A stretch of 37,100 nt of DNA from a virus (taxonomy: Duplodnaviria > Caudoviricetes). The notes under the pieces are model-generated. The model saw only the letters and a program-made list of their open reading frames with translations. It had not been told where the DNA came from and did no database searches. Position numbers and translations under genes: made by a program. Where the stretch lies: IMG/VR virus record IMGVR_UViG_3300011338_000713, positions 1-37,100 of that record, one strand, 5' to 3'. Every line of letters begins with the position of its first letter. The first letter of the stretch is position 1. Positions 36,336 to 37,100 of this stretch are shown here, one piece after another.

Positions 36336-37100
36336 ATGCTCAACGGACTCGACTTATTTACAGGAATCGGAGGAATGTCACTCGCATTGTCAGAATGGGT
36401 TAGACCAATCGCTTATTGCGAAATCGACCCTTATTGTCAAGGAGTTCTCTTGTCACGAATGGACGATGGAAATTTGGAAGAATCTCCCATATGGCCAGAC
36501 ATTAAATCTCTTGACAGGGCTTGTCTAGGTGATATAATTTCTCTCAAAAAGGAGAGTGATTCAATGGCTGGTAAATTGAAAAAAGTAACAGAAGAACAAG
36601 TAGCTCAAGCAGTAAAAAGTTATGATGATGGAATGTCTTTAGCTGATTTGGCGCATATTTATGGAATGACAAGACAAGGAATGTGGGATTTAATACGTAG
36701 ACGAACAACTCTAAGATCAAATTTAAAATATGGAAAAGACAATCATTTCTATAGAGGGGGTGCCCGAGCCGATGCAAGAGCAGGAAAAATACTTGATAAT
36801 GCAATCCGTTATGGAAAATTGCATAATCCTGAAAAATGTTCTGAGTGTGGAAGCTGTGAACGATTCAAAGATGGAAGAACAGCCATCCAAGGACATCATG
36901 ACGACTATAACAAACCTCTCGATGTCAGATGGCTTTGCCAACAATGTCATCACGAATGGCACAAAAACAATGAACCTATCAAATTTACAGGAGAGCCGGA
37001 ACTCACCGAAGATGTCGATATCATCTTCGGCGGGTTCCCGTAATGTCCATGCCAAGATATCAGCATTGCAGGACATGGAAAAGGCTTGGAAGGAGAGCAA
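36336..37100 (+). CDS. C5 cytosine DNA methyltransferase, interrupted by an HNH insert and an in-frame TAA; 3'-truncated
   Basis: Motif [10 protein letters not shown], motif II YCEID, motif III WPDI, motif [20 protein letters not shown], then GKGLEGE in the same frame to the window end. Confidence 0.9.
36511..36554 (+). promoter_or_regulatory. Consensus promoter and RBS embedded in the methyltransferase frame
   Basis: TTGACA(36511-36516)-N16-TATAAT(36533-36538) with extended TGn; SD AAGGAG(36549-36554). Confidence 0.8.
36564..37043 (+). CDS. HTH-HNH homing endonuclease 4, nested in frame within the methyltransferase
   Basis: In-frame ATG 36564; [35 protein letters not shown] linker; CSEC...[23 protein letters not shown]; ends at TAA 37041-37043. 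Confidence 0.85.

Follow-up and report, generated by a model that had tools for sequence, protein, structure and literature searches.

Programmed translational bypassing is known from very few genes. The closest described system is T4 gene 60 with its linked homing-type HNH endonuclease MobA, in which a stop-containing gap interrupts invariant active-site codons, is found in every nuclease carrier and is retained after nuclease loss (10.1101/2022.08.31.505936). The host gene, encoding a topoisomerase large subunit, is split in two by MobA. Its gap of about 50 nt (Gly46/Asp45) exhibits an A-site stop or slow codon and is free of early landing sites. Pairing of the exiting mRNA has been proposed as the forward driver, but for gene 60 it is an open question if the ribosome slides forward because mRNA pairs behind it (10.1101/2024.12.09.627546). 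For hopping over an in-frame stop, a 2016 review knew of no natural occurrences; stop-hops have been built as synthetic constructs in E. coli (PMC5009743). The 10-nt bypass in the terminase gene of Streptomyces phage Hau3 was demonstrated by a junction peptide, in a study reporting on three genes of 100 examined; it is triggered by a rare UUA codon and proposed to be a regulatory sensor, and the available part of the report describes no homing nuclease (PMC10732093). The byps of Magnusiomyces mitochondria are short inserts skipped by organelle ribosomes at many sites per genome, exhibiting unused codons instead of stops and tolerating imperfect landing codons (PMC5009743, 10.1101/2022.08.31.505936). 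Two further systems concern DNA methylases. The ShiLan domain is a non-splicing HNH in an actinophage DNA methylase, thought to home; it lies out of frame in a stop-free host frame, no ribosome-binding site was found for it, and it needs no recoding (PMC11855218). M.EcoHK31I is a two-chain C5-methyltransferase with an overlapping +1 frame containing a motif IX-like sequence (PMC2836561).

The window analysed here is one phage contig of 37.1 kb (37,100 nt), encoding a terminase, a portal protein and a YqaJ recombinase. A methyltransferase gene at its end exhibits the following features.

36336..37043, + strand: C5-cytosine methyltransferase exon 1, 235 aa from ATG 36336, ending at TAA
36357-36374, + strand: motif I FxGxGG, inside exon 1
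36511..36538, + strand: predicted internal sigma-70-type promoter, 12/12 consensus, TG before the -10 box, lying within the methyltransferase frame and expected to drive the nested nuclease
36549-54, + strand: Shine-Dalgarno-like AAGGAG, ahead of an in-frame ATG
36564-66, + strand: this in-frame ATG, predicted own start of the nuclease, with the SD-like site upstream
36564..37043, + strand: nested nuclease gene, 159 aa, with HTH, zinc-type HNH and a DIIFGGFP-encoding tail; its stop is the TAA of the gap
about 36570-36677, + strand: HTH of the nuclease (Pfam HTH_7 E=0.0036, below cut-off)
36837 (CxxC) to 36962 (final His), + strand: zinc-type HNH module, as a sequence motif
36998..37038, + strand: RNA stem-loop of 16 bp, arms 36998-37014 and 37022-37038, one 1x1 internal loop
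37038..37040, + strand: predicted take-off codon CCG, Pro of the catalytic Pro-Cys
37041..37049, + strand: coding gap of 9 nt: stop TAA (A-site), TGT, predicted landing codon CCA
37050..37100, + strand: start of exon 2, catalytic Cys, CQDISIAG..., truncated by the contig end

We estimate a probability of roughly 0.8 that this is a mobile cassette decoded by hairpin-driven ribosome hopping. In the window and its relatives, the cassette exhibits those features of programmed translational bypassing that can be examined in sequence: split exons, a stop after the take-off codon, a landing codon that could be re-paired, gaps of any frame and no earlier landing site. The likeness to T4 gene 60/MobA is, by analogy, one of working, with unshared anatomy. 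The traits given above for that system recur here (interruption of invariant codons in the active site, linkage to a homing-type HNH, a gap that all nuclease carriers have and that outlasts nuclease loss, A-site stop, no early landing site), and pairing of the exiting mRNA would be a further one. The anatomy differs in host gene and site (C5-methyltransferase motif IV), in the Pro take-off and in the gap length of 5-15 nt. Unlike in gene 60, as far as its sources could be consulted, a single hairpin ends in the take-off codon, and no A-site stem-loop or mini-SD is seen in gaps that are mostly too short for one. Where MobA splits its host gene, the nuclease here shares one open frame with motif I and is nested inside the host gene; unlike for MobA, the bypassed stop doubles as the nuclease's own stop, and the nuclease has its own predicted promoter. 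The commonest form in the family, Pro-stop-Pro, has the layout of the synthetic stop-hops (PMC5009743), the window allele having one codon more in the gap, but it is natural, conserved and equipped with a dedicated hairpin. The Hau3 bypass resembles it in being a short gap in a phage gene at a slow A-site codon, and the byps in being short ribosome-skipped inserts with imperfect landing codons, whereas here one fixed site is read by bacterial ribosomes.

The junction reads GGC (37029-31), GGG (37032-34), TTC (37035-37), CCG (37038-40), TAA (37041-43), TGT (37044-46), CCA (37047-49), TGC (37050-52), then CAA and GAT. Re-reading the frame from 36336 bears out what the sequence-only reading had noticed: deletion of 37041-37049 reconstitutes motif IV, and the frame past the gap is open up to base 37100, where the contig end truncates the gene 17 codons past the catalytic Cys. 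The nine bases are genuine, being present in contigs (as distinct from raw reads) of two studies. Run X1, possibly the source sample, gave a 736-nt contig of depth 63.8 with 0 differences over 36371-37098; in run X2, from a separate study, a 4477-nt contig covers 36850-37100 with one substitution and no alignment gap against the window. A divergent allele, with a gap shorter by 3 nt, is found in runs X4, X6 and X16. None of 23 runs listed as containing the sequence is of RNA, which has no bearing on expression. Assembly error was rejected, since the X1 and X2 contigs match and the gap recurs in other loci.

Exon 1, for which GTG 36324 is an alternative in-frame start, runs from motif I through the HTH-HNH, inserted in frame, to half-way into motif IV (DIIFGGFP). 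It matches PHROG 363, DNA methyltransferase (E=4e-9), and Pfam DNA_methylase below cut-off (E=0.0026). The window itself exhibits motifs I and IV only; the ENV motif (VI) is present in 115 of 118 relatives, and the close relatives L141, L144, L171 and L175 have second exons of 204-233 aa extending to motif X. By its ordered motifs I, IV, VI, VIII and X, the host gene is classified as a C5-cytosine DNA methyltransferase. A Cro-like HTH gene (36000-36305, + strand) lies directly 5' of it, at the switch between leftward and rightward genes, preceded by a second 12/12 sigma-70 consensus (35898-35925, + strand), likely the source of the full-length methyltransferase transcript.

The HTH-HNH noticed in frame just 5' of the gap has a nuclease part that matches PHROG 2340 'endonuclease' (E=1e-23) and PHROG 8446 'HNH endonuclease' (E=2e-8); Pfam returned no HNH hit on the window nuclease. 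Among the 91 fused alleles, which had been selected by the central HNH motif, CxxC is conserved in 91 and the terminal C..CH...H in 89. An AlphaFold model of the 159-aa nuclease has a pLDDT of 78.7. In a fold search its HTH part matches solved structures at Z up to 7.4 and its HNH part is unmatched; Foldseek gave no hit at E<=0.001, only weak rows for McrA-type HNH enzymes. A promoter score of at least 10 of 12 is found in 40/76 HNH alleles against 1/76, 0/74 and 0/124 control stretches, and a start codon with an SD of at least 4 nt in 68/78 HNH alleles against 9/73 controls. The free nuclease is probably expressed from the internal promoter, with initiation at ATG 36564 behind the SD-like site, and not solely as the truncated methyltransferase-HNH fusion. 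The sequence-only reading had the TAA end the free endonuclease, and the nested 159-aa frame does stop there.

The window gap is one member of a widespread family of phage C5-methyltransferase alleles. An exact-motif scan of viral contigs found two further 9-nt gaps, one without any nuclease. When any single codon was allowed between the two Pro codons, that codon was a stop in all 47 loci; when the residue before Pro and both inserted codons were left free, all 18 loci read GGFP-stop-X-CQD (the two scans share some contigs). A stop at a free codon is expected in 3 of 64 cases, so that this pattern is not due to chance. A nuclease-blind scan, in which 2-24 additional bases of any kind could follow one common codon context, yielded 56 loci, of which 40 distinct ones scored as methyltransferases and one of these was by eye a chance match; in the remaining 39 the stop directly follows Pro in 37, comes one base later in one and is missing in one. 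A broad variable-gap scan was dominated by chance matches upstream of normal motifs and gave at least five gapped loci along with many gap-free controls. The final set comprises 136 gapped allele clusters at 80% identity, two chance rows (gaps of 11 and 13) having been removed from 138. Gap-free genes are far more frequent (about 3800 stretches with a narrower pattern), putting gapped alleles at roughly a few in a hundred, although the patterns compared differ. Carriers include genome records titled Bacillota, Bacteroidota, Ignavibacteriota, Chloroflexota and Synergistaceae. Among cultured phages and plasmids the search found no cassette carrier, only distant endonucleases of 30-35% identity. 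A literature search found no account of the cassette; subscription papers and bioRxiv supplements (e.g. the tables of 10.1101/2022.08.31.505936) were outside its reach.

The gap lengths of the 136 clusters are 5 nt (1 cluster), 6 (77), 7 (27), 8 (8), 9 (14), 10 (7), 14 (1) and 15 (1), the 6-nt class being over-sampled because it was deliberately sought. The three frame classes comprise 92, 34 and 10 clusters, so that 44 gaps are out of frame. The stop directly follows Pro in 129 clusters (TGA 53, TAA 45, TAG 31); the other seven exhibit CAA (three times), CGA, GTA, ATA or AGT. Genetic code reassignment was rejected, all three stops being in use. Gaps of 5-15 nt in all three frames argue against readthrough, which the sequence-only reading had retained as an option and which is now disfavoured. 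Readthrough might still be thought to serve the in-frame gaps and ordinary +1 or -1 frameshifts the rest, the enzyme then carrying 1-4 additional residues in its catalytic loop. A stop after Pro is prone to shifts, and the frame is kept in 92 of 136 gaps, a share that includes the over-sampled 6-nt class. Such an explanation, however, requires three mechanisms behind one shared signal. Moreover, sense-codon insertions are absent from the 47 and the 18 loci above, TAA is frequent (45/136), some gaps hold two stops, and the link between the third bases of take-off and landing codons, given below, would lack a protein-level cause. We regard it as quite improbable.

The codon before Cys is CCN in 80 clusters, differs from it at one position in 53 and at two in three; that is, 56 of 136 landing codons (41%) are mismatched, unlike in gene 60 homologues as far as the accessible sources describe them. 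Matched Pro codons, as proposed for the window, are present there (CCG/CCA) but are not needed in the family; given the share of mismatched landing codons, hopping efficiency could be low. A purine third base is found in 54/56 mismatched landing codons against 51/80 matched ones (p=2.5e-6). At mismatched sites, a CCA take-off codon is followed by an NNA landing codon in 13/13 cases and never by NNG. CCG goes with NNG in 31/39 mismatched against 8/42 matched cases, and the mismatched cases include eight of CCG with NNA. GC3 is similar in both landing groups (0.54 and 0.58), and GC content is thus no explanation for the link, which persists at 50% clustering, down to 39 representatives. Under tRNA decoding rules, the third-base link is the pattern expected if a Pro tRNA with a UGG or CGG anticodon has to keep two good pairs on landing. 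An earlier CC is absent from all 31 gaps of 8 nt or more, and C is scarce within gaps (7/130 bases). The longest gap (L176, 15 nt) exhibits a second stop and, close ahead of the landing codon, a run of purines that resembles an SD and is reminiscent of the gene 60 mini-SD. It is the only gap with such a run, most others being too short for a mini-SD or an A-site stem-loop.

Some junctions deviate from this scheme. GGFPC-stop variants are found after the HNH in L319 and in proteins P0074, P0082 and P0083; by analogy with the one-codon take-off shift of some gene 60 homologues, the take-off may have moved to the Cys codon. Stop-less gaps are found in proteins P0121-P0126, with sizes of 5 or 8 nt taken from protein sequences and not DNA, and in loci L212, L266 and L529; here unhopped ribosomes would enter the +1 frame, joining the nuclease to a motif IX chain. 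In L203, a methyltransferase gene downstream of a free-standing HNH, the junction reads GGFH-stop-PCQ with no in-frame Pro take-off; the allele may have decayed, contain a sequence error or use another take-off position.

A conserved RNA hairpin 5' of the gap was overlooked in the sequence-only reading and is likely the recoding signal. In the window the 3' arm terminates on the first base of the take-off codon, and the fold of 36985-37060 has an energy of -31.2 kcal/mol (z=-5.2, 0/200 shuffles). Median energies of the 63 nt ending at the take-off codon are -24.9 kcal/mol for the 91 fused alleles, -27.6 for the 45 gapped alleles without fused nuclease and -13.5 for 126 gap-free genes; the z values against synonymous shuffles are -3.1, -3.7 and +0.4, respectively. 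A joint hairpin criterion holds for 112/136 gapped against 6/126 gap-free alleles, and the helix ends within 3 nt of the end of the take-off codon in 134/136 gapped ones. With the 5' arm placed blind to the tested base (arm located in 106/136), one pair covaries, G facing a pyrimidine in 70/73 and C facing G in 30/30; gap-free genes exhibit no such link. In 29 hairpins of equal geometry (of 30 rows, L138 being excluded because the wrong arm had been picked) none of the seven basal pairs is broken, one switches between C-G (22), G-C (6) and A-U (1), and another is mostly U-G, as would suit RNA. Beyond the basal 7 bp the stem is less regular, and its pairs do not keep the same register between alleles. 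RNAalifold gave no consensus stem for 38 hairpins of mixed length because their 5' arms are out of register, whereas the 29 of equal geometry yielded the basal 7 bp. No 3' stimulatory structure was found, 3' folding being not stronger in gapped alleles (136 clusters). Two other candidate signals were discarded. A small hairpin around the take-off codon alone exhibits weak covariation (61 against 51 expected, p=0.018) and is superseded by the long stem; for an RF2-like Shine-Dalgarno formed by the Gly-Gly codons, anti-SD pairing is weaker in gapped alleles (median -6.0 against -7.3 kcal/mol).

A hairpin terminating right at the junction could also act on transcription. Nascent hairpins can promote polymerase slippage, and the independence of gap length from frame would fit removal of the gap at the RNA level, either by a jump of the RNA polymerase or by a protein-assisted micro-splice, so that the ribosome would meet an uninterrupted message. 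Against this, the two ends of the gap have no more than 1-3 bases in common, which would not suffice for an RNA-DNA hybrid, and landing obeys tRNA wobble rules (at mismatched sites, CCG to NNA in 8 cases, CCA to NNG never). The in-frame stop after Pro is also retained in nuclease-free alleles, and Rfam has no match. Such removal therefore appears improbable. A group I or II intron was rejected, with no Rfam match at E<=1 in 36200-37100 and no room for a ribozyme in the 6-nt gap of nuclease-free alleles, as was an intein, since protein splicing cannot remove a stop.

Exon 2 is under purifying selection, a point that the sequence-only reading had proposed to check. Its dN/dS, over codons 8-75 after Cys and for pairs picked on nucleotide identity, is 0.24 in 37 gapped pairs against 0.25 in 46 gap-free pairs (0.26 with and 0.22 without nuclease among the gapped), and the exon extends to motif X in 91/103 closed gapped against 63/84 gap-free genes. 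It had also been noticed that no in-frame start precedes the catalytic Cys; this holds in 122/136 clusters, including 92/92 with in-frame gaps. With exon 2 conserved and no such start available, the Cys must be reached from upstream. A methyltransferase killed by nuclease insertion, exon 2 being a recent pseudogene, is extremely unlikely, even though phage orphan methylases can be dispensable (PMC11855218) and 12 of the 103 closed exons fall short of motif X: in dN/dS and in intactness the gapped genes match the gap-free ones, whether they carry the HNH or not, and the covarying hairpin is retained after nuclease loss, with seven or more pairs in 42/45 gapped alleles that have no fused nuclease. 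We hold as very unlikely a split enzyme, in which exon 2 would be newly initiated and its product would pair with that of exon 1. Natural two-chain C5-methyltransferases do exist (PMC2836561), nuclease insertions divide T4-like nrdA and topoisomerase genes into two chains (10.1101/2022.08.31.505936), and at the landing and Cys codons there is often an overlapping ATG or GTG in another frame. Yet, besides the missing start, the first in-frame start of exon 2 is located a median of 22 codons after Cys, although constraint is highest in the first 12 codons (dN/dS 0.11), and a product of the overlapping ATG frame, whose longest open stretch has a median of 48 codons, would be short and lack the Cys.

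An overlapping +1 frame with a motif IX-like sequence, as in M.EcoHK31I, is present in 60/103 gapped and 36/84 gap-free genes and open over a median of 199 and 174 codons, respectively (e.g. L001:2518-3156, L141, L126). The M.EcoHK31I split (PMC2836561) concerns motif IX, is found here with and without the gap and leaves the stop in motif IV unexplained.

The association of nuclease and gap was assessed with an HTH-HNH profile search of viral, genome and metagenome collections, the best 80 of 239 and of 345 being kept. Over all loci gathered to that point, from this and the earlier searches, 93 distinct nucleases lead in frame into the motif IV first half; 90 were resolvable and all 90 are gapped, 77 of them found via the nuclease search alone, which is blind to the gap. 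The final set holds 91 gapped and no gap-free HTH-HNH fusions. In 120 sampled gap-free loci (40 with short flanks only), this HNH was never found upstream, and motif I lies at the normal distance in 109. Twelve longer proteins were also found; of these, six have the nuclease, and none of the six continues as GFPCQ, their sequence passing stop-free into another frame. The HNH-gap link is one-way, every HNH fusion being gapped and not vice versa. The test proposed in the sequence-only reading, that P-stop-X-P-C be limited to HNH-carrying alleles, fails, 25 of the 39 gapped loci from the HNH-blind scan lacking this HNH. In 34 gapped clusters the N-terminus has normal length and no HNH. The many gapped alleles without nuclease imply that current homing is not needed to keep the gap. 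In L043 the window's post-nuclease tail is present and the nuclease absent, which looks like a clean nuclease loss. A clade of mostly nuclease-free gapped genes (16/19 rows; L123, L125, L126, L128, L131, L132, L135, L152, L154, L164, L166, L512, L528) encodes one hairpin arm by a G-T/S-x-W-R peptide; judging from these sequences, the hop is retained there long after nuclease loss.

In a tree of exon 2, computed by a quick method from 245 of 262 rows (85 residues or more) and 107 columns, with the window's short exon 2 absent, gapped and gap-free alleles interleave, and well-supported branches force at least seven changes. The nearest exon 2 is that of a gap-free gene for 27/68 HNH alleles. Near-identical nucleases in distant genes amount to only five pairs (HNH 75-79% against exon 2 45-59% identity) and are not decisive for mobility. 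Of 16 loci examined for free-standing HTH-HNH copies, some of which sit behind a second methyltransferase start, eight have the copy just upstream of a methyltransferase gene that is gapped (L177, L214, L354, to which the odd L203 may be added) or altered in motif IV (L217, L264, L338, L340, L363); the remainder gave no downstream motif. These neighbours fit motif IV as the target and do not show it. The evidence that the gap protects its own allele from HNH cleavage, as first proposed, is likewise circumstantial.

Every comparative test above backs the core of the sequence-only reading, a homing-type HNH with a ribosome-bypass gap in motif IV, as far as sequence comparison can reach. In the proposed mechanism, a ribosome with peptidyl-tRNA-Pro on CCG would pause at the stop codon. 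Since the 5' hairpin can close its lower stem only as the 3' arm exits the ribosome, zipping of that stem would then push the ribosome forward; the tRNA would re-pair at CCA, and decoding would restart at the Cys codon, giving ...GGFPCQ.... The full-length methyltransferase would carry the HTH-HNH as a loop insert, and terminating ribosomes, chiefly those initiated at ATG 36564, would release the free 159-aa nuclease. This would cut gap-free motif IV DNA, the gap would confer resistance and repair would copy the cassette, which is the least tested step; later the nuclease would often be lost, hairpin and gap remaining. More broadly, we think it fairly probable that this is a self-contained selfish gene, with promoter, start, nuclease and stop in one host frame, in which a hairpin-plus-stop of 40-50 nt drives unrelated bacterial ribosomes over 5-15 nt, even onto mismatched codons, and so restores the host enzyme; it would be a widespread natural stop-hop.

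In this proposed reading, a homing nuclease has invaded catalytic codons without splicing, which, if true, would add to introns and inteins a third general means by which homing nucleases can occupy an active site. The family would add 136 allele clusters to the few bypassing genes known. Its gaps fall in all frames, its landing codons are mismatched to varying degrees and its hairpin is compact and covarying, so that nature has already supplied the series of mutants; more than a hundred natural variants would, if the reading is true, allow a direct test of whether pairing of the exiting mRNA pushes the bypassing ribosome. Genes of this kind are probably mistaken for pseudogenes or truncated proteins: among the 120 best protein hits, 111 end at xGFP-type residues. 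Tests are feasible, since carriers include a cultured strain: the record of Muriventricola aceti H5_61 (L265) exhibits the whole cassette at 1279-2100, with a 6-nt gap, an SD and a nested ATG. The window itself contains two more HNH_3 endonuclease genes (5997-6704 and 19175-19822, both + strand), unrelated to the nested nuclease, one of which overlaps the end of the terminase gene.
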